Source of the DNA: Eledone cirrhosa
Taxonomy: Eukaryota
DNA: 64,000 bases
Direction of reading: 5' to 3'
Assembly (NCBI GenBank): GCA_964016885.1
Contig: OZ024747.1
Span: 65,224,001 to 65,288,000 of the forward strand
This document shows positions 4,087 through 55,847 of this stretch, piece by piece; the first letter of the stretch is position 1, and each line of letters opens with the position of its first letter. The translations under genes and the position numbers were made by a program. The notes beneath the pieces were generated by a model that ran no database searches, was not told where the DNA came from, and saw only the letters and a list, made by a program, of their open reading frames with translations.

Positions 4087-4124
4087 GTCTTAACGTTTCG
4101 GATACTAGTTCTTCATCAGAAGAC
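4087..4124 (-). ncRNA. Minimal hammerhead motif, degenerate stem II
   Basis: Minus strand GTCTT-CTGATGA-AGAACTAGTATCC-GAAACGTT-AAGAC; paralog of 38350-38385. Confidence 0.6.
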
Positions 4125-4424
4125 AGAGTTAGAAATAGAAGATAAATAGGAAGTAAAGAGTGATGAGAGGAAGGAACGGGGAAAATGAGAAAAAATTGGG
4201 GAGAAAAAAACTTACACATGCGTATTCACTCGGCCATCTTGGAGAACATATATATATATATATACAATTGATGGATAAAAAGTACTCAATACCAAAGTAG
4301 AGTAAAAATATTCATTTAATGGCTAAGTAATGAGCATAGTTACTCTATTGATTCATTGTCTGATGATCCTGCACAGGTAAAATGCCTGAATGACAAGGCT
4401 CACCACTAATACGTAAAATTATTA

Positions 4425-4459
<35 letters not shown>

Positions 4460-4869
4460 TTAGTACCTATTCTTACCATAACTTTACAGCCCAACTCTAC
4501 TCTATATGGGATCACTCCACTCTTCTTAAATCCCAACACTCCAGCCATAACTCGTTACTCTTTACCTCACACTACTATTAACTCTTAATGAGCCAGTCAT
4601 GACTACACACTAACCCCTAAGCTACACGGCTTAACAGTAATAATAATAGTCAACACTGAAACAATATTTGCACCTATTTTACAGGTAATGGCTTAAGTAG
4701 CAAGAGCATTAACGAGACCACATCAATTATTTGCAGAGTTAGAAATATAATTTATCACCATTATTGACAATATATAGACATATGTACGAACAATTTTGGA
4801 AACTATTTCAATAATAACATCCTTTCACTTCAAACTCTATTAACCACACAATCACAATGGTTTCCTTTC

Positions 4870-5610
4870 TTACTTGTACTTGTGTCAACATTCACCCTGG
4901 ACGGGTTGAGCTGGCTTCTTCCCTTGTCCTGACGGCATCCCAAACCATGGCAGCCCACGCATGACGGTCCCGGGCTAGTTCCTTGGAGATAGCGAGCCAG
5001 TCACGGTTCCATTGGCGCAGGCCGACCACCTGCGGACCTGAGAGTTCGGAGAGGTCCTCCTTGATCGTCGTTGATCAGGTCTTCAGCTGCCTGCCAACGC
5101 GCTTGCGCCAGTTAGGGAGTGGAGGTGGGAGGAGAACATCGCGGATCAGCTCACCCTCAGGGCACCGGGCTGCATGACCAAACCATCTCAAGCGCCGTTG
5201 TAGAAGCACTGAAGGAAGGGGTCGAAGATGCAGGCGAAGACGAAGACTGGGGGTAGGTACCCGATCAACGCATCGGCAGGGAAGAATGCGGTGGAGACAG
5301 TCATTGTCGAAGACCTCCAGCCCTCGTTGATCAACTACCCTCATAGGCCATGTTTCACAGCCATAGAGGAGGATAGTGCGCACGACGGCCTGGTAGATTC
5401 GCCCCTTTGTCACCGAGGTGATCCCTCTTCTGTCCCAGACACCGCTGGAGGCGCCCAAAAGCGGATCTGGCAGAACCTATGCGACGCTTAACCTCGGCTG
5501 TGCCCTGTCCCGTTGCAACCACTGTTGAGCCCAGGTAAACGGACTCCACATCCTCCAGGTCCACGCCCTCGAGAGATATTGGCTGCCAGGCATCAGGCGA
5601 GACCAGTGAT
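4870..5610 (-). mobile_element. RTE-clade LINE 3' fragment (frameshifted ORF2 C-terminus)
   Basis: YLGS, GRIYQAVVRTILLYGCETW, RRLRWFGHAAR motifs in ORFs 5355-5564 and 5075-5458. Confidence 0.9.
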
Positions 5611-5617
5611 GTCGTAT

Positions 5618-5870
5618 CATCATCATCATTTAACGTCCATTTTCCACATTAGCATGGGTTAGACGGGTTGCCTCATTGTGAGACAAACCAGGTCCGATGA
5701 CCATGACTTACTCATATAGGACTGGTTTGGGGTTGGTTTCTACAGCTGGATGCCCTTCCTAACAACAATCGGATTTACAGTCTGTGCTGGGCGCTTTTTG
5801 TTGTGACACCTACAAAACAACTTTACTGTGTGGGCTGGGTACTATTTGTCGTGACACCTATACAATGACA
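5618..5870 (-). mobile_element. SINE/RTE tail fragment
   Basis: (ATC)n, TTTAACGTCC, GGATGCCCTTCCTAAC motif, degenerate 48-bp units. Confidence 0.75.
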
Positions 5871-6219
5871 TAATCCAACAAGATGGTGTAGGACAGAACA
5901 AAGGAAAGACAAAAAATATAAAACCCAGTCACTGATGAGGTCACAGAATGTGTGACGAAGGAACTTTAACAATATATAAACAACCATCCAGTTATCAAAC
6001 CAACCAACCGGAAATTTATTATAATAAATTGAAGTGAAAACCAACAAGTGTGTGAGTTTTTATTTGCATCATGACCCTCACAAAGTATAAGAATATCTAT
6101 TACAACACATGTTTTCAGATAAGAAATCTTGCAAAACAAATTAAAAAACAAAGTATATACATATATATACATACATACATAATCATCATCATCATACATC
6201 CGCTCTTCCCTGCTTGCAA

Positions 6220-6256
<37 letters not shown>

Positions 6257-6600
6257 CCTCTGGGGGATACAGTTGAAACCAATGTGTCAGATTTAATTTA
6301 TAAAACAGTCTCACTATTGTTTTATATACTATAATATATGAGCTATTAAAAGAAATATAAACCAACTGAGATAAAATTGTGAATACTGTAAATACATGTC
6401 TGCACCTTTCTGCATATTTGCTCTACTGCTTTTATTGTATCTTTATTCTATTATATGTGATTATGTATTTTTTCCTATCTTTTGTTTGTTTGTTTGATTC
6501 TGCTGTTTTTATTCCATTCTATCTTGGCTTTTAAAAAAGACATTTTATAGTTAAACATGTTTCTACTAAATATTCATGTGACTATTAAAAAAAGGATATT

Positions 6601-6870
6601 TGTAGGTAAGTATGTAAGGAGGTAGGTAGATAGGTAGGGAGGTAGGTAGGTAGGTTGGGAGAGAGGTAGGTAGGTAGATAAGGAGGTATGTAAGAAGGTA
6701 TGTAGGAAGGTAGGTAGATAGGTAGGTAGGGTGGGAGGGAGGTTGGGAGAGAGGTAGGTAAGAAGAGAGGTAGATAAGGAGGTATGTAAGAAGATAGGTA
6801 GGTAGATAGGTAGGTAGGTAGGTAGATAGGTAGGTAGGTAGATAGATAGGTAGGTAAGTTGGTAGGTAGG
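6601..6870. repeat. (GTAG)n/(GATA)n compound microsatellite
   Basis: Direct reading. Confidence 0.9.
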
Positions 6871-7329
6871 TAATAATTGTTTCTACTTTTGGCACAAGGC
6901 CAGCAATTATCTCAGGGTATTACTGGTACTTTATTTTAGGTAGGTAATAATGAAAATAGTAATATTTTTTTTTAAATTTGAAATTCTATCATGTTTCATC
7001 TTTTAATGTAAAACTGAAGTAAATACAGCAAATTAATGAAAACTCTATTGTTCACCATTAGAAATATAAAATAAAGTCAATCAAAAATAGGCACACACAC
7101 ACACCCCCACACCCAATATAAACATAGGCCCCATTTCCACTGAACACTCTTATGTCACCATGTTTAAAATATCCTCTCTTCTCCACACCTGAACTCTATT
7201 ATTTTAATTCAAACCTGTGCCTGAATAAAATGTGGTACAGTAAATAAATATATACATATACACCAGGTCTGAACACAATGGAACCAAACTCCCACTGTTA
7301 CTGCCTGCATCTCTCCTGCGCTTCCCATC

Positions 7330-7412
7330 TCTCATTTACGGGGGTCGATAAAAAAAAGTACCAGTAATGTACTGGATAATTGCTGGCCTTGTGCCAAACG
7401 TAGAAACAATTA
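7330..7412 (+). mobile_element. Deu/Nin-domain SINE 3' fragment (opposite-strand fragment at ~6875-6937)
   Basis: GGGGTCGATAAAA...GTACCAGTAATG...GGCCTTGTGCCAAACGTAGAAACAATTATT. Confidence 0.75.
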
Positions 7413-7609
7413 TTATATACAAATGGGGGCCCACACACTGGCTACCCAGCGACCCCAAAGGGCAGAATAGAGAAAGTGTTTCCTGGAGGATGGTGAGGGA
7501 CGTGCATTGAAAGAGCCATTCCAGCTCACAAGGCTCTCACCTGTGGGTGATGATCATATAACAATAACTTGTCAAATTCCAACATTAGGAAGTTTCTAAC
7601 CTGATTGCA

Positions 7610-7955
7610 CCACCTCAGTCAATCAATAGGTCGCACTGCTTGCATGGATTCCCTTGACTTTCAGTCACCATCAAATTCTATTGTTTATCATATACGGCAG
7701 GTGAGAGGGATTGCAGTTCATGGTGTCACAAATCTGCTTGATATAGGCCTTGGCTTGTCGTCCCCTGCTAGCTCTTCCTTGTGCAGGACCCCACAAAAGA
7801 GAGATTACAGTTTATGTTGTCACAAATCTGCTTGACATAGATCTTGGATTGTTGTTCTCAGCTAGTTCTTCTTTGTATAAGCTCCCACAAAAGAACTTGA
7901 CTAACAATTTCGTCTTTTGCTGTCCAGCAATGCCCTGCCAATCTGATGATGTCAG
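7610..7955 (-). mobile_element. Degenerate RTE-X-like LINE 3' fragment with internal duplication
   Basis: Minus-strand translation AGHCWTAKDEIVSQVLLW...KIYVKQICD resembles RTE-X ORF2 C-termini. Confidence 0.6.
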
Positions 7956-8569
7956 ATACTGAACAAAGGTTCCTATATAGTCACTCATTGGTCAGACAAT
8001 CTCCCCACTTAGCATGCAAGAGTAGGCTCCATCTAATCTTCTTTCCAATAAAACAAAAAGTGTAAAACTTATACAACTTTGTTGCCATAAACAAAATACT
8101 AAAGCAAGTATTAATGAAGAAAGAGATAAAGAAACAATAAATTCTTAGAGACATATATAAATATTAGAATTGTCTAGGTCAACCATTTTTTTTTTTTATT
8201 TCCTGTTCATATATATTTCTAGATTCAAAGGTTTCAGAAATCTGTACTAATGATGAATAAAATGGAAATTATAAGAAAAGAAGTAAACTACGGCAACAAA
8301 AGGAATTCTATAGAAGAGATGTTGGTTTTATGGTTTAAAATATGATAATTTGATGAGTGGAGTTAAGAGAGCCAAATAATAATGGTAATAGAGAGAGCAA
8401 CAACAGCATAGTCAGGAAGTATAGAAACAATAGTGGTCTAGATCTTTTTAAACTGCCAGACAGAAATAAAATATGGAGAAAGCTAAGGTTTTATACAATG
8501 ATGAATGGATATATATATATATTATGTATGTATAATTATATATATATGTTTGTATATATAAATACTAAC

Positions 8570-8602: not shown

Positions 8603-9150
8603 TAAATACTCATATATGTATATATATACATATATAAATACTCATATATATATGTGTATATATGTATATATAAATACTCATATATATATATATATACATA
8701 TATACACATATATAAATACTCATATATATATATTTACATATATAAATACTCATATATATATATACACATATATAAATACTTATATATATATATATATACA
8801 TATATAAATACTTATATATATATATATACATATATAAATACTTATATATATATATATATACATATATAAATACTTATATATATATATATAATTATATATA
8901 TTTATGTATATATAATTATATATATATACATATGTATATATAAATATCTATACATATATAAATACATACATATATGTATGTATATATAATTATATACATA
9001 TATATATGTATATATAAATATCTATACATATATAAATACATACATATATGTATGTATATATAATTATATACATATATATGTATGTATATATAAATATCTA
9101 TACATATATAAATACATACATATATGTATATATATATATATATATGTATG
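8590..9150. repeat. AT-rich compound micro/minisatellite
   Basis: Repeated ATATATAAATACT(C/T)ATATAT and ATATATAAATATCTATAC units. Confidence 0.85.
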
Positions 9151-9553
9151 TAAAATATTAAACAAATAATGAATAAACAATTCCTTATATTAAACAAAAA
9201 AAGTTCATTATTTAACGATCGTTTCTAGGGTATATATGTGTTATAATTGGTATGCATATTCAACAGATCTATGTACAAAATTATACAAAATTATACAAAT
9301 TATCAAGATTAAATATACATACCTAACACATATATACGCCGTCTTCAGATTATTTCTGAAGACGGCGTATATATGTGTTAGGTATGTATATTTAATCTTG
9401 ATAATTTGTATAATTTTGTATAATTTTGTACATAGATCTGTTGAATATGCATACCAATTATAACACATATATACCCTAGAAACGATCGTTAAATAATGAA
9501 TTTTTTTTGTTTAATATAAGGAATTGTTTATTCATTATTTGTTTAATATTTTA
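9151..9553. repeat. Near-perfect ~400-bp palindrome (two ~199-bp arms, 5-nt loop TTATT)
   Basis: Centre TCAGA-TTATT-TCTGA at 9352; mirror ORFs 9236-9463(+) and 9241-9468(-); only one mismatch noticed. Confidence 0.95.
9349..9497 (+). ncRNA. Type I hammerhead ribozyme motif with ~115-nt stem II
   Basis: Stem I ATTATTT/AAATAAT, CTGAAGA 9356-9362, stem II GTATATATGTGTTA/TAACACATATATAC plus GGTATGTATATTTAA/TTGAATATGCATACC, GAAAC 9479-9483, palindromic ACGATCGT then T (GUU site). Confidence 0.75.
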
Positions 9554-9742
9554 TCTTGACTCTGTATACCGTTTATCTTTCACCGAAAGTGGTTTTTCAT
9601 TACATCTCTTCTTTCCATGATATCCGGAATACATTGAGTTCTTCATACGGATTGGACACTACCGTAAACTCTTGGTAGATTTATCTACATATATATGTAT
9701 GTATATATAAATATATATACATATATAAATACATATATAAAT

Positions 9743-9795
<53 letters not shown>

Positions 9796-17079: not shown

Positions 17080-18475
17080 TTAGGAATTTAGCGTACAGGT
17101 TGGGGTCCACCAGGGCTCTGTTCTTAGCCCTCTCCTGTTCATCATAGTCCTGCAGGCAATAACGGAGGAGTTTAAGACCGGATTCCCATGGGAACTCCTG
17201 TATGCTGATGACCTCGCACTCATAGCTGAATCTATGGTAGAACTAGAGAATAAATTCCAAACCTGGAAGCAGGGACTAGAGAGAAAGGGTCTCAAAGTCA
17301 ACATGACAAAGACTAAGGTCCTTGTAAGTAGACGAGAAAACAGAACCCAGATCCCCTCAGGGAAATGGCCTTGCTCAGTATGTAGGAAAGGTGTAGGTAG
17401 GAACTCCATTCTCTGCCCCAAATGCAAACAATGGGTACACAAGAGATGTAGCGGGATCTCAGGAAGCTTAATTAAGAATGTAGGATTCACATGCAGCAGC
17501 TGTGCTGAAACAGCAAGCAGCAAACAGCCACAGGAAACAAGTACCACCAATCTCTGGGAGGGCCCTGTAGAAACAGTAGACAGCTTCTGCTACCTAGGTG
17601 ACCGAATTAGCAACGGAGGTGGGTGTTCAGAAAGTACAATAACTAGGGTAAGAACGGGATGGAAGAAGTTTAGGGAACTACTACCACTGCTAGCTGCAAA
17701 AGGCTTCTCCCTCAGAATGAAAGGCAGACTGTATGATGCGTGTATCCGAACAGCGATGTTGCATGGTAGTGAGACCTGGGCGCTGAAGGTGGAAGACTTA
17801 CGTAGATTAGAGAGAAACGAAGCCTGCATGCTCCGATGGATGTGTAACAGTAATATACGTGAACGACAAAGCATAAATGAATTGAGAGAGAGACTGAGCA
17901 TAAGAGGAATCAAATGCTGTGTGCAGGAGAGGCGGTTTCGCTGGTATGGACATGTGATGTGTATGAAGGATGACAGCTGCATAAAAAGGTGCAGAGCACT
18001 AGAAGTTGATGGAAACCACGGAGTGGGGAGACCCAAGATGACCTGGGATGAGGTGATAAAAGCCGACCTTACCCAACTACACCTCTCAAAGACAATGACA
18101 CACGACCGTGACTTCTGGCGTCACGCAGTAATACAGCGTACCCGACCTCCCATGGGTACATGCTGAAGCATATAAACAATATGTCCCCACACACCCCACC
18201 GCAAGGTGGTCGTGGAGGTGCCACGGCAAAAAAGCACCCAGCCCACACTGTAAAGTGGACGTGTAGGCGCCACGAAAAAGCACCCAGCACTCACTGTAAA
18301 TGAGGTTGGTGTTAGGAAGGGCATCCAGCTGTAGAAATCAAGCCAGATCAGTTCCTGTATGAGCAAGGCATGGTCAGCCGACCAGACACTGCACACAACA
18401 GGACAACCCGTCTAACCCATGCTAGCGTGGAAGAACGGACGTAAAACAGTGATGATGATGATGATGATGATGATA
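17080..18475 (+). mobile_element. 5'-truncated young RTE LINE: RT C-half (QGSVLSPLLF, YADD), Cys/His-rich insertion, C-terminal domain, 3' UTR, (GAT)n tail
   Basis: Open frame from ~17084 to the stop at 18166; YLGD, MLHGSETW, RRFRWYGHV motifs; both flanks read TATATATATTT. Confidence 0.95.
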
Positions 18476-18558: not shown

Positions 18559-18722
18559 ATATAGATGAGATTCTACAGGACTAGAACTGTTTCATTCTTT
18601 AGAAATCATCAGTTCTAGTCCTGTAGAATCTCATCTATATTATTAAAACTTTTATACTCTACTATGTATTGAGTACCTTACTTACTGTGGTTACCTCCTA
18701 TTCAACCCGGAATAACTTACCT
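18559..18722. mobile_element. Mini fold-back element with hammerhead-like core in the loop and ACTC..GAGT tail
   Basis: 31-bp perfect arms 18559-18589 / 18610-18640; minus strand CTGATGA-T-TTC-TAAA-GAA-T-GAAAC-AGTT. Confidence 0.6.
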
Positions 18723-23149: not shown

Positions 23150-25945
23150 GCAACCAGCCTATGTTGCAAAGTGGTAGTGTTGAGAGCACAACAAAAAGGA
23201 CCCAATCCACCCTGTAAAGTGGTAGTACTAGTACCACAACAAATAGCATGAAGTCCACCCTGTAAAGTGATAGTGCTGGTACCACAACAAATAGCATGAA
23301 GTCCACCCTGTAAAGTGGTAGTGCTGGTACCACAACAAATAGCATGAAGTCCACCCTTTAAAGTGATAGTGCTGGTACCACAACAAATAGCATGAAGTCC
23401 ACCCTGTAAAGTGGTAGTACTAGTACCACAACAAATAGCATGAAGTTCACCCTGTAAAGTGGTAGTACTAGTACCACAACAAATAGCATGAAGTCCACCC
23501 TGTAAAGTGATAGTGCTGGTACCACAACAAATAGCATGAAGTCCACCCTGTAAAGTGGTAGTGCTGGTACCACAACAAATAGCATGAAGTCCACCCTTTA
23601 AAGTGATAGTGCTGGTACCACAACAAATAGCATGAAGTCCACCCTGTAAATTGGTAGTACTAGTACCACAACAAATAGCATGAAGTTCACCCTGTAAAGT
23701 GGTAGTACTAGTACCACAACAAATAGCATGAAGTCCACCCTGTAAAGTGGTAGTGCTGGTACCACAACAAATAGCATGAAGTCCACCCTGTAAAGTGGTA
23801 GTACTAGTACCACAACAAATAGCATGAAGTCCACCCTGTAAAGTGATAGTGCTAGTACCACAACAAATAGCATGAAGTCCACCCTGTAAAGTGGTAGTAC
23901 TAGTACCACAACAAATAGCATGAAGTCCACCCTGTAAAGTGGTAGTACTAGTACCACAACAAATAGCATGAAGTCCACCCTTTAAAGTGATAGTGCTGGT
24001 ACCACAACAAATAGCATGAAGTCCACCCTGTAAAGTGGTAGTACTAGTACCACAACAAATAGCATGAAGTCCACCCTGTAAAGTGGTAGTACTAGTACCA
24101 CAACAAATAGCATGAAGTTCACCCTGTAAAGTGGTAGTACTAGTACCACAACAAATAGCATGAAGTCCACCCTTTAAAGTGATAGTGCTGGTACCACAAC
24201 AAATAGCATGAAGTCCACCCTGTAAAGTGGTAGTACTAGTACCACAACAAATAGCATGAAGTCCACCCTGTAAAGTGGTAGTACTAGTACCACAACAAAT
24301 AGCATGAAGTTCACCCTGTAAAGTGGTAGTACTAGTACCACAACAAATAGCATGAAGTCCACCCTGTAAAGTGGTAGTACTAGTAGCACAACAAATAGCA
24401 TGAAGTCCACCCTGTAAAGTGATAGTGCTGGTACCACAACAAATAGCATGAAGTCCACCCTGTAAAGTGGTAGTACTAGTACCACAACAAATAGCATGAA
24501 GTCCACCCTGTAAAGTGATAGTGCTGGTACCACAACAAATAGCATGAAGTCCACCCTGTAAAGTGGTAGTACTAGTACCACAACAAATAGCATGAAGTCC
24601 ACCCTGTAAAGTGATAGTGCTAGTACCACAACAAATAGCATGAAGTCCACCCTGTAAAGTGGTAGTACTAGTACCACAACAAATAGCATGAAGTCCACCC
24701 TGTAAAGTGGTAGTACTAGTACCACAACAAATAGCATGAAGTCCACCCTTTAAAGTGATAGTGCTGGTACCACAACAAATAGCATGAAGTCCACCCTGTA
24801 AAGTGGTAGTACTAGTACCACAACAAATAGCATGAAGTCCACCCTGTAAAGTGGTAGTACTAGTACCACAACAAATAGCATGAAGTTCACCCTGTAAAGT
24901 GGTAGTACTAGTACCACAACAAATAGCATGAAGTCCACCCTTTAAAGTGATAGTGCTGGTACCACAACAAATAGCATGAAGTCCACCCTGTAAAGTGGTA
25001 GTACTAATACCACAACAAATAGCATGAAGTCCACCCTGTAAAGTGGTAGTACTAGTACCACAACAAATAGCATGAAGTTCACCCTGTAAAGTGGTAGTAC
25101 TAGTACCACAACAAATAGCATGAAGTCCACCCTGTAAAGTGGTAGTACTAGTACCACAACAAATAGCATGAAGTCCACCCTGTAAAGTGGTAGTACTAGT
25201 ACCACAACAAATAGCATGAAGTCCACCCTTTAAAGTAATAGTGCTGGTACCACAACAAATAGCATGAAGTCCACCCTGTAAAGTGGTAGTACTAGTACCA
25301 CAACAAATAGCATGAAGTCCACCCTGTAAAGTGGTAGTACTAGTACCACAACAAATAGCATGAAGTCCACCCTTTAAAGTGATAGTGCTGGTACCACAAC
25401 AAATAGCATGAAGTTCACCCTGTAAAGTGATAGTGCTGGTACCACAACAAATAGCATGCAGTCCACCCTGTAAAGTGGTAGTACTGGTACCACAACAAAT
25501 AGCATGAAGTCCACCCTGTAAAGTGATAGTGCTGGTACCACAACAAATAGCATGAAGTTCACCCTGTAAAGTGATAGTGCTGGTACCACAACAAATAGCA
25601 TGAAGTCCACCCTGTAAAGTGGTAGTACTAGTACCACAACAAATAGCATGAAGTCCACCCTGTAAAGTGGTAGTACTGGTACCACAACAAATAGCATGAA
25701 GTCCACCCTGTAAAGTGGTAGTACTGGTACCACAACAAATAGCATGAAGTCCACCCTGTAAAGTGGTAGTACTGGTACCACAACAAATAGCATGAAGTCC
25801 ACCCTGTAAAGTGGTAGTACTGGTACCACAACAAATAGCATGAAGTCCACCCTGTAAAGTGGTAGTACTGGTACCACAACAAATAGCATGAAGTCCACCC
25901 TGTAAAGTGACAGTGCTGGTGCCATGAAAAAATCTACCAGTACTC
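23150..25945. repeat. 48-bp minisatellite (~58 units) grown inside a SINE/RTE 3' region
   Basis: Unit CCACCCTGTAAAGTGGTAGTACTAGTACCACAACAAATAGCATGAAGT; continues into GGAAGGGAATCC...GATGAT tail at 25945-26090. Confidence 0.95.
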
Positions 25946-33325: not shown

Positions 33326-33387
33326 ACCTTGGTAGAAAAAACCCCCCCAAAATGCACAAGTGCATTCAGTCAGCCATCATATATATA

Positions 33388-34140
33388 TATGGAATAGAAT
33401 GAAACGAAATTTCATTTTTCACTCTTAGTACGGCACTTACTTAAATGTAAGTATGTATGTATGTATACGTACATACATATATGTATACAGACGTACAGTA
33501 GTATGTATATATATACATGCACACATATATATACATGCACACATATATATACATGCACACATATATATACATGCACACATATATATATATGCACGTATCG
33601 GTTTACCGAACATTTATTATAATGCTCGGTTTGTTTGTTTGTAAACAAACAAACAGCAAAGAGTGAGAAATGAAATTTCGTTTCATTCTATTCCATTTAT
33701 CGTTTTCGGTGTGCCCGGCCGACTGAAATCCCTCGATATGCAAATTAGGCTGCTCAGCTGTTAATATGCATAAGGAAAGTATATATTTTCAGACGTTCAA
33801 CCATCTGGCAGGAACGTATATGATGCTGACGATAGCTAATAAGCTTGAAACTAGTACATTGTTCCTGTGTCAGTGTTGAACAAAAAGGTGACGTGGTTGC
33901 CTAAACACTGTACGGTGTAATTCGGGCTGTTTGTTTGTTTACAAACACACCGAGCATTATAATAAATGTTCGGTAAACCGATACATGCATATATATATGT
34001 GTGCATGTATGTATATATATATATACATACTACTGTACATCTGTATACATATATGTATGTACGTATACATACATACATACTTACATTTAAGTAACTGCCG
34101 TACTAAGAGTGAGAAATGAAATTTCGTTTCATTCTATTCC

Positions 34141-34142
<2 letters not shown>
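33388..34142. mobile_element. Fold-back element in (TA)n with internal hammerhead; related fragment at ~58125-58320
   Basis: Inverted arms ~33388-33657 / ~33926-34142; extra terminal copy at 33660-33696. Confidence 0.75.
33821..33861 (+). ncRNA. Minimal type I hammerhead ribozyme motif
   Basis: TGATG-CTGACGA-T-AGCT-AATA-AGCT-T-GAAAC-TA-GTA-CATTG; palindromic ACTAGT stem III, GUA site. Confidence 0.75.
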
Positions 34143-34172
<30 letters not shown>

Positions 34173-38349: not shown

Positions 38350-38385
38350 TCTTAACGTTTCGGACGCTAGTCCTTCATCAGAAGA
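38350..38385 (-). ncRNA. Minimal type I hammerhead motif
   Basis: Minus strand TCTT-CTGATGA-A-GGAC-TAGC-GTCC-GAAACGTT-AAGA; palindromic ACGT. Confidence 0.7.
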
Positions 38386-44134: not shown

Positions 44135-46325
44135 GTCAGACATCACAAGGTACATGTTTATATGAAGAAGGAGAACATATATAGGTGGTTAGACATCAAA
44201 AGGAACATGTGTATATGAATAACTAATATGGCTGAAGATGGTCAGACATGATGTGGTACATGTGTATATGAAGGAGAACATACAAAGGTGGTCAGACATC
44301 ACAAGGTACATGTTTATATGAATAAGGAGAACACAAGTGGGTGGTCAGACACAATGAGGTACATGTTTATATGAAGAAGGAGAACACATGTAGGTGGTCA
44401 GACATCACAAGGTACATGTTTATATAAAGGAGAACATATGTATGTGGTCAGACATGATGAGGTACAACTTTATATGAAGAAGGGGAACACATGTAGGTGG
44501 TCAGACATGATGAGGTACATGTTTATATGAAGGAGGAGAACATGTGTAGGTGGTCAGACATGATGAGGTACATGTTTATATGAAGAAGGGGAACATATGT
44601 AGGTGGTCAGACATGATGAGCTACATGTTTATATGAAGAAGGGGAACACATGTAGGTGGTCAGATATCACAAGGTACATGTTTATATAAAGGAGAACATA
44701 TGTATGTGGTCAGACATGATGAGGTACATGTTTATATGAAGAAGGGGAACACATGTAGGTGGTCAGACATGATGAGGTACATGTTTATATGAAGGAGGAG
44801 AACATGTGTAGGTGGTCAGACATGATGAGGTACATGTTTATATGAAGGAGGAGAACATGTGTAGGTGGTCAGACATGATGAGGTACATGTTTATATGAAG
44901 GAGGAGAACATGTGTAGGTGGTCAGACATGATGAGGTACATGTTTATATGAAGAAGGGGAACATATGTAGGTGGTCAGACATGATGAGGTACATGTTTAT
45001 ATGAAGAAGGGGAACACATGTAGGTGGTCAGATATCACAAGGTACATGTTTATATAAAGGAGAACATATGTATGTGGTCAGACATGATGAGGTACATCTT
45101 TATATGAAGAAGGGGAACACATGTAGGTGGTCAGACATGATGAGGTACATGTTTATATGAAGGAGGAGAACATGTGTAGGTGGTCAGACATGATGAGGTA
45201 CATGTTTATATGAAGAAGGGGAACATATGTAGGTGGTCAGACATGATGATGTACATGTTTATATGAAGAAGGGGAACATATGTAGGTGGTCAGACATGAT
45301 GAGCTACATGTTTATATGAAGAAGGGGAACATATGTAGGTGGTCAGACATGATGAGGTACATGTTTATATGAAGAAGGGGAACATATGTAGGTGGTCAGA
45401 CATGATGAGGTACATGTTTATATGAAGAAGGGGAACATATGTAGGTGGTCAGACATGATGAGGTACATGTTTATATGAAGAAGGGGAACATATGTAGGTG
45501 GTCAGACATGATGAGGTACATGTTTATATGAAGAAGGGGAACACATGTAGGTGGTCAGACATAATGAGGTACATGTTTATATGAAGAAGGGGAACATATG
45601 TAGGTGGTCAGACATGATGAGGTACATGTTTATATGAAGAAGGGGAACATATGTAGGTGGTCAGACATGATGAGGTACATCTTTATATGAAGAAGGGGAA
45701 CACATGTAGGTGGTCAGACATGATGAGGTACATGTTTATATGAAGGAGGAGAACATATGTAGGTGGTCAGACATGATGAGGTACATGTTTATATGAAGAA
45801 GGGGAACATATGTAGGTGGTCAGACATGATGAGGTACATCTTTATATGAAGAAGGGGAACACATGTAGGTGGTCAGACATGATGAGGTACATGTTTATAT
45901 GAAGGAGGAGAACATGTGTAGGTGGTCAGACATGATGAGGTACATGTTTATATGAAGAAGGGGAACATATGTAGGTGGTCAGACATGATGAAGTACATGT
46001 TTATATGAAGAAGGGGAACACATGTAGGTCGTCAGAGATCACAAGGTACATGTTTATATAAAGGAGAACATATGTAGGTGGTCAGACATGATGAGGTACT
46101 TGTTTATATGAAGGAGGAGAACATGTGTAGGTGGTCAGACATGATGAGGTACATGTTTATATGAAGAAGGGGAACATATGTAGGTGGTCAGACATGATGA
46201 GGTACATGTTTATATGAAGAAGGGGAACATATGTAGGTGGTCAGACATGATGAGGTACATGTTTATATGAAGAAGGGGAACATATGTAGGTGATCAGACA
46301 TGATGAGGTACATGTTTATATGAAG
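44135..46325. repeat. 53-bp minisatellite (~41 units)
   Basis: Unit GTAGGTGGTCAGACATGATGAGGTACATGTTTATATGAAGAAGGGGAACATAT. Confidence 0.95.
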
Positions 46326-46331
46326 AAATAA

Positions 46332-54365: not shown

Positions 54366-55847
54366 CTAGACACTATGGAATACACACACACATATAGATA
54401 TATATATACACACACAAAAGAATTAAAATACTATAACACAAATACACACATTTCATTACTGTGTTACGGTCTAGATTTTTTCTATGATCCTCCATCTTAT
54501 GGAAACATCCATACCATTACCATTGGGATTCCACACATGGCTTGCAAGTTTTGTGATATACCTCTTGTCTGGGTGTCTAAAAGGTTGTTTTGTAGTTGAG
54601 GAAACAGCTTTTGAAGCAGCTCACCAACATGCCTACATATGTCCAGGTGAATGTCACTTCTTCATATATTACTGATGGAGCGTTGCATTGTTGGTCAAAT
54701 GGGCATGTTTCTGGCTTTCTGCAATAGCATCCGGGTGTTAGAGGGCTCTTGTGTTTATTTTTGATCCAGGAATGTGTTTTTTTTTGTCACAGCAGTACCT
54801 TATTTTCACCATGTGATGGTTAAATATCTGACAGTATTTGTGACTTATAAGGAAATGTGTATCAAATGAGTGTTAGGAATATTTTACCTACATTATTTTT
54901 GATGTTGAGAGAGAAAGGTGGTGAGAACCAAATAATGGAATTATGTCTACATTTCTTCTTTCTGCTAGTTTTTGGGTGGTTATCTGGAGAGTAAGAAATG
55001 TTTTCAAAGAAACCACTGTTACTTAGAGCTGTTTTATGGTAAGGGGATGCCCTGTTAAGATTACTTTCTTAGAAAAGAGGTAGATATCATTTGACTGATG
55101 TTCATAATAAAGATTTTGAAACTTATAAGCGGGTGGTATGAGTTTTTGTGTATATATCAGAGTCTTTTGCTTGGTTTGTGATAAGGTTTATATGTGAGTG
55201 CACATAGATCTACATTTATGACTCAGGAGATACATTGTGAATTAGTTGACATTAACAATGACATCAAGCTAAAGATATCCTGCCAAAATAGAATGTATGA
55301 GCAAGACACTGCCAGGTGGCCTGCCTGTCTAGTTTCAGAGCATGACAATCCTTCTAAACCGTGCAAGCATGGATAATTCATGTAAAATAGTGATGATGAT
55401 GATGGTGATATATACAAACACATTAAACAATATATTTATAAACAATACAATATATATTACAAATTATAGTGATACCTACATTAATATATAAATTCAATGT
55501 AGGAACCACTATATTTTCTAATTCTATGCCTTGCTGTGAAAACATAGACAAATACAAAAAGATTCTGTTGTCATCTTTCTTCACAGAAAATTCAACAGAG
55601 TGATTGTGTCTTTACATATTTCAAAGTTAGTTAGGTTTTCATCAAAAGACAAAGTACATTTATTCTTCTGTTTACAAAAATAAGCTCATAGCTAATCACT
55701 ATTTTATCAAGCCTGAATCAAAATTCTATATATTAAAAGATCTAAGATAAAAACAATATATTGCTACAGTATTTCTCTTCTGATAAACAACTAACTAACA
55801 GGAAATCCTCTATATCAGTGATTTTTAACCCTTCTAATGTTGTTTAA

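Follow-up and report, generated by a model that had tools for sequence, protein, structure and literature searches.

The locus described here holds two copies of one sequence arranged head to head as a near-perfect palindrome, with the centre of symmetry inside a hammerhead ribozyme motif. It raises the question of how the mirror arm was formed and what fixed the point of inversion. The locus lies in a 64,000-nt stretch of the Eledone cirrhosa assembly (GCA_964016885.1, contig OZ024747.1, positions 65,224,001 to 65,288,000), and this whole analysed stretch is referred to as the window.

The insertion at 9138-9703

The arms at 9151-9349 and 9355-9553 pair at 198/199 positions, with one mismatch (9203/9501) and a 5-nt loop at 9350-9354, confirming the palindrome of ~199-bp arms in the original prediction. 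Outside 9151 and 9553 pairing ends. The palindrome sits within (TA)n-rich arrays of the window and is bounded by a 15-bp direct duplication. Family positions (q) are numbered from q1 at window 9349. The inversion point falls within stem I, with the junction at 9349, and the left arm covers q7-205 only and lacks the 5' strand of stem I, both as predicted. The features of the insertion are as follows.

9138-9152, forward strand: left half of the 15-bp target-site duplication, set in (TA)n-rich DNA and identical to 9689-9703; its last 2 bases overlap the arm end
9151-9349, reverse strand: inverted tail-less pseudo-LTR copy (q7-205), ending at the family's inner fixed 3' site
9349-9355, forward strand: family 5' boundary (q1-7) and 5' strand of hammerhead stem I; likely RNA start
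9349: head-to-head junction, with a 1-nt overlap
9349-9688, forward strand: tailed pseudo-LTR copy in direct orientation (q1-340), from a Hydra-clade Penelope-like element, 99-100% identical to 40/40 scored copies
9356-9362, forward strand: hammerhead core CUGAAGA by sequence, found in 21/21 aligned copies of two subfamilies (19 of them found by a pattern containing the core)
9363-9478, forward strand: 116-nt stem II hairpin of two long helices with a C.A mismatch at its base (z -7.9; 92.5% of cells paired)
9479-9490, forward strand: GAAA box, self-complementary stem III (9482-9489, dimer type) and GUU triplet; predicted cut after 9490
9491-9540, forward strand: 3' strand of stem I (9491-9497) and its alternative local hairpin with 9530-9540 (z -1.4, not significant alone)
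9554-9688, forward strand: 135-nt tail between two fixed 3' ends, the putative reverse-transcription start sites
9689-9703, forward strand: right copy of the 15-bp target-site duplication

The direct copy carries one private change, at 9501, and the window copy itself has no ORF. We conclude that the locus is a real, recent and minimal insertion of a Hydra-clade Penelope-like element, consisting of two back-to-back hammerhead-bearing ends. By itself, a single locus of this kind is ordinary transposon debris.

Perfect palindromes are a known read artefact. However, the arms end at element-defined sites, the flanks are not mirrored, one arm has its private change, and the direct duplication encloses the whole. 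Raw DNA reads of another study also carry the same family ends: counted at the level of the family rather than the locus, 520 continue into native upstream DNA at 9349, 398 exit into (TA)n after 9554, and 3 switch strand at 9349. An assembly or fold-back read artefact is thus very unlikely, with a chance close to nil.

Element family and clade

A search of the animal's own genome (3.0 Gb) with 9349-9690 returned 1475 candidates, and 40/40 scored were full length and 99-100% identical, in keeping with the very recent origin first proposed. Another 12 matches were inverted partial copies adjoining scored ones, and 9/12 ended at q205-209. The tail at 9554-9688 had been regarded as unique, which proved incorrect: it recurs in 942 candidates (40/40 scored 100% identical) and in 4577 pattern matches. 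The family was also present in contigs under two other organism labels.

At L031 and L032, direct repeats (pseudo-LTRs) 6.6 kb apart flank an ORF. The L031 ORF encodes 813 aa and begins 495 nt after q1; the full 830-codon frame was kept in ~112/150 scored ORF copies by hand count. It joins an RT with an endonuclease of GIY-YIG type in a single frame, with RWR at 37, DKT at 115, YRDD at 346, a CxCX5C linker at 673, VY..YIG at 693, and C-terminal CxxC at 771 and CxH at 799. A CxxC between the GIY and YIG boxes was absent in this protein (P0001) and in the 85 long homologues counted. Homologues of the ORF numbered 118, mostly unnamed. Pfam gave no match at cut-off for P0001, and the homologue P0002 had a weak GIY-YIG match below cut-off (E 0.012).

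The motif set that characterizes the Hydra clade in the accessible text of PMC8557442 is present in this protein. The family resembles that clade, including Hydra-1_Obim, in RW[K/R], DKT and the CxCX5C linker, and in a GIY-YIG core without an inner CxxC but with C-terminal CxxC and CxH. It is further alike in its (TA)n target, its type I hammerhead with palindromic stem III, the mismatch at the base of stem II and the inverted 5'-truncated copy. Pseudo-LTRs from partial tandem insertion, an inverted 5'-truncated copy and a tail at one end were all found here, and the insertions target (TA)n as in the Hydra clade. On these motifs and a by-eye comparison with published Hydra proteins, the family is classed as a Hydra-clade Penelope-like retrotransposon that is very young and present in many copies. 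A first reading as Neptune was rejected: the ORF protein has neither the CX2-5CxxC linker nor the CCHH motif.

The family also departs from the Hydra elements covered in that text. Stem II with its loop measures 116 nt here, compared with at most 24 nt in 26 Hydra rows; the unit is 6.6 kb where Hydra units are generally <3 kb; and the tail is 135 nt, compared with 30-40 published. The hammerhead sequence differs from that of Hydra-1_Obim given there, so this is another family. Recently active Penelope families have been described in an octopus, with hammerheads not among the accessible content of that source (PMC13282606). New here are the length of stem II and of the tail and the size of the unit, together with counts relevant to mechanism; the architecture is known, and examples of a long stem II may exist in print.

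Two further observations concern the element. L031 contains a microsatellite-like 3' UTR of ~3.7 kb (4295-7970), and the element 3' UTR ends with AATAAA 8-9 nt before the next q1, a motif kept in several subfamilies while upstream DNA otherwise differs. Elsewhere in the window, the minus strand of 54580-55288 gave weak tblastn matches to the Hydra ORF (E about 6e-5 to 8e-5), and is likely a decayed relative.

Formation of the mirror arm

The palindrome had been read as a fold-back event. It is not confined to this locus: two cores head to head within 25 nt were found at no fewer than 407 loci by a pattern search that detects only subfamilies with the exact core context of the query (reversed control, 0). 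Nor does a simple fold-back account for relatives in which the tail-less arm is kilobases longer than its partner. We examined 57 junction loci, comprising the first 50 among those listed and 7 from the similarity search. The tail was on one arm only in 53/57, on both in 0/57, and 4/57 had no tail marker; the tail-less end lay at q205/206 and ran into (TA)n in 52/57. Arms started at q1 in 61/114 cases at these 57 loci, the pattern itself restricting starts to near q1, and a 1-2 nt overlap at the junction was seen in 34/57 loci. Among 60 loci selected by the tail instead, 16 start at q0-q3, another 13 have starts spread between q20 and q183, and 23/60 have an inverted arm <900 bp away. Target duplication was informative in 5/49 loci with both ends located (56 given); four were 15 bp (the window copy, L068, L071 and L079) and one was 36 bp. 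The family thus has two fixed 3' ends 135 nt apart and one tail per palindrome. Both 3' ends are retained in an older subfamily (2688 matches, 30 examined).

This layout of insertion ends is published: the tail is a feature of the family, and an inverted pseudo-LTR plus tail is standard for a Penelope-like element. Head-to-head pseudo-LTRs, a one-sided tail and target duplication match the Penelope insertions in the accessible parts of PMC3846280 and PMC8557442 (Fig. 2), and hammerheads on both strands recall those of Schistosoma mansoni, which lie 100-700 bp apart (PMC4209133, as available). Unlike those cases, the whole insertion here consists of the two ends only, and hundreds of near-identical copies make the junctions countable.

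The hundreds of loci of similar size could also be read as whole copies of a master palindrome moving as a non-autonomous unit of retrozyme or MITE type, and a preprint derives animal retrozymes from pseudo-LTRs in its accessible text (10.64898/2026.07.22.740005). Yet junction sequences vary widely among loci while both arms of a locus share subfamily variants, which implies that the junction is remade at each insertion. Tandem monomers are also absent here: non-LTR retrozymes are defined by tandem head-to-tail monomers each with a hammerhead, and only a head-to-head pair was found. Junction diversity already largely refutes copying from a master palindrome, which we regard as very doubtful.

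The second variable is the position of the junction. Among the first 100 listed of 2695 copies containing q1-22, 17 began exactly at q1, while none of the first 100 listed of 7652 copies began at the predicted cut site, q143. In the older subfamily (30 of 2688 matches examined), the q1 boundary is kept behind several different upstream sequences. A G precedes q1 in 541 copies where the element has C or A. By hand count of 100 listed, this G was unexplained by partner sequence in 57, ambiguous in 25 and templated in 18. A or T precedes q1 in 1972 copies, about 41/100 listed being native to other subfamilies, and a control count of G before q3 gave 2/100 listed. The unexplained G accounts for roughly one fifth of non-native q1 starts, a figure from hand counts of listed rows from the first contigs only, and it occurs on either arm. 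Other retrotransposons are known to gain an extra G when the cap is copied. Penelope transcripts start in the pseudo-LTR according to the available text of PMC2377424 and PMC6765202. From the DNA we infer that q1 is likely the capped RNA start of the element. A search of the open-access literature found no paper joining Penelope, non-templated G, cap and retrotransposon.

In hundreds of loci the junction sits at the 5' edge of stem I, which might suggest that the ribozyme sets the inversion point, through cleavage or through a polymerase stalling at the folded hammerhead. Cleavage is predicted at q142/143, however, where 0/100 listed copies start; a polymerase reading 3' to 5' would presumably meet the structure at its 3' side; and the extra G before q1 fits a cap. 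We consider this explanation scarcely credible. The palindrome centre would lie in stem I because this is the likely start of the RNA, and ribozyme cleavage would play no part in placing it.

The two arms of one locus were identical in 38/56 loci and differed once in 9, larger differences being mostly in rearranged or cut-off loci, while loci differed from one another by subfamily variant sets. Because arms share variants while loci carry different sets, both arms derive from one source. The arms need not be equal in length. Of 20 long head-to-head pairs from the q1-22 listing, 14 joined one tail arm to one tail-less arm, and in 5/20 the tail-less arm was 2.8-5.6 kb longer. A tail-less arm kilobases longer cannot simply be a copy of the tail arm. 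The tail-less arm also reaches further 5' in L046, L065 and L220 among the tail-selected loci.

These arm data bear on self-priming, in which a cDNA spanning q340 to q1 would turn back at its AT-rich 3' end and serve as its own template, the endonuclease then cutting it at q205 ahead of its joining to the target; unequal arms would then reflect later deletion at the hairpin tip. Self-priming accounts for the shared variants, for the short junction overlaps and for symmetric breaks away from q1 on both arms, seen in 3/60 tail-selected loci (L061, L221 and L223), and it has already been proposed for such palindromes in the accessible text of PMC3846280. The symmetric breaks, though, are predicted equally well by fold-back and by one broken RNA. 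Self-priming sits poorly with the tail-less arms that are kilobases longer in 5/20 pairs, with the extra G before q1 on either arm, and with both outer ends meeting target (TA)n with a 15-bp duplication. It is a less likely explanation, although one that deserves some weight.

The locus is instead probably a minimal insertion of the young Hydra-clade element made by priming reverse transcription from both cut target strands. In vitro, the Poseidon element PAc of Anolis carolinensis has both strands nicked and then extended, the tail lies between two internal start sites, and hammerhead cleavage is not needed; formation of the inverted arm is not demonstrated in the accessible text (PMC11167929). 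The present family shares with PAc two fixed ends bounding a tail, an AT-rich target and the lack of copies ending at the hammerhead cut. It differs from PAc, which belongs to a different clade, in that its two ends fall within the 5' UTR, 154 and 289 nt upstream of the start codon, and not in the ORF (PMC11167929, as available). Two-strand priming is the best model because of the arm-length disparity, the shared variants and the PAc results in vitro.

Under two-strand priming, the element endonuclease would nick both target strands ~15 bp apart. One target end would prime at q340 and the other at q205, in the first pseudo-LTR of the element RNA, and each cDNA would extend to the capped RNA 5' end at q1. 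The two AT-rich cDNA ends would then be joined with 0-2 nt of overlap or a few added bases. The hammerhead, predicted to need a dimer or the element protein, would leave no mark on inserted copies.

In L1 twin priming, two target strands prime on the element RNA and yield a 5' inversion, with each cDNA covering its own stretch of the RNA next to the other. Here, in contrast, the cDNAs would overlap fully and begin at two fixed internal sites. Twin priming without displacement, in which tail arms would stop at q207, was rejected because 0/100 listed tail arms start there, and either strand displacement on one RNA or two sister RNAs from one locus would be required. Among the papers listed by a search of the open-access literature, none linked 'twin priming' with pLTR.

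The model makes exact predictions: the RNA should start at q1, cDNA synthesis should be primed at q205 and q340, the nicks should lie ~15 bp apart, and cleaved RNA should go unused. The origin of Penelope-like inverted ends is still open in the accessible text of PMC8557442 and PMC11167929, and this family, which is young and has >100 apparently intact ORFs and thousands of ends, offers a good in vitro substrate. A more specific version, which we advance tentatively, is that a dimeric protein carries out the priming of both strands, using two fixed sites of a single capped RNA, and the cap is copied as the extra G. The hammerhead with its 116-nt stem II, its stem I strand taken by the downstream hairpin, might then be switched off during copying and act more as a protein handle than as scissors. 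If so, the unsolved step in Penelope integration would be recorded naturally in this family, and the genome would at present be receiving long dsRNA and cruciform DNA from the hundreds of fresh 400-bp palindromes.

The hammerhead and other features of the window

A hammerhead-shaped right arm with a long stem II had been predicted, and its parts were found in place: stem I at 9349-9355/9491-9497, the core at 9356-9362, stem II at 9363-9478 and GAAA at 9479-9482. These supply the type I elements CUGANGA, GAAA, NUH and stems I-III. The 116-nt stem II has a folding energy of -44.1 kcal/mol, and its z of -7.9 is relative to 300 dinucleotide shuffles. A C.A mismatch at 9363/9478 replaces the usual G10.1-C11.1 pair closing stem II; in the available rows of File S2 of PMC8557442, 15/26 Hydra hammerheads have a mismatch at this foot, and U or A at the cut is common. 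The triplet is GUU here and GUA in the older subfamily.

Conservation of core and stems in other genomic copies, on which the original prediction depended, was observed. The core was invariant in the aligned copies, and across two subfamilies (11 sequences) 92.5% of stem II cells were paired, compared with 20-56% when the pairing was slid. Between subfamilies stem II changes from G-C to A-U at 9367/9474 and from G.U to A-U at 9364/9477; the single two-sided change was reached by 137/500 shuffles and so does not stand out from them.

Folding of 9349-9497 (q1-149) had been expected to give a complete hammerhead. All the parts are present, but the monomer fold lies +4.9 kcal/mol above the predicted ground state. 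Adding the next 57 bases (q150-206), where the local hairpin would compete for 9491-9497, raises its predicted cost to +10.4 kcal/mol. Stem III is palindromic, which suggests that the motif acts as a dimer, as discussed in the available text of PMC4209133. In a read-through RNA of the whole palindrome, a 199-bp hairpin of -301.8 kcal/mol is predicted, so both hammerheads would be excluded. We conclude that the hammerhead is a Hydra-type dimer motif by prediction. There was no genomic footprint at the predicted cut site among 100 listed copies. The family makes it possible to ask if cleavage survives a stem II of 116 nt.

Rfam gave no match at gathering score anywhere in the window, and no hammerhead model was among the 51 weak matches in 9100-9750; the weak microRNA matches reflect the palindrome. 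None of the papers listed by a search of the open-access literature combined Penelope-like, Hydra, hammerhead and long stem. Stem II contains a GT..AG stretch, from GT at 9382 to AG at 9436 or 9479. Some families of endonuclease-positive Penelope-like elements carry an intron in the pseudo-LTR or 5' UTR, but one at this place gained no support, as none of the 7 genomic matches to its junction pattern was a spliced copy: six were inverted or fold-back stem pieces and one was unrelated DNA. Small inversions or repeated fold-backs were seen inside stem II in L179 and L182-L184, which suggests template switching within the long hairpin.

Several other features occur in the window. A second, smaller palindrome at 18560-18642 has arms of ~30 bp and, on the minus strand, a compact core resembling a hammerhead; it is possibly an older mini insertion of another Penelope-like family. 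An inverted repeat at 33379-34152 (79% over 279 bp) flanks a Hydra-style hammerhead core at 33826, which has T.T in place of a pair at the base of its stem II. On the minus strand, 4095-4119 and 38357-38381 hold two compact motifs that resemble hammerheads, are related to each other and belong to another family. Large tandem arrays, of 48 bp and 53 bp, and an RT-like frame of 360 codons were found at 23206-25909, 44135-46327 and 17084-18163; the frame presumably resembles RTE LINEs.
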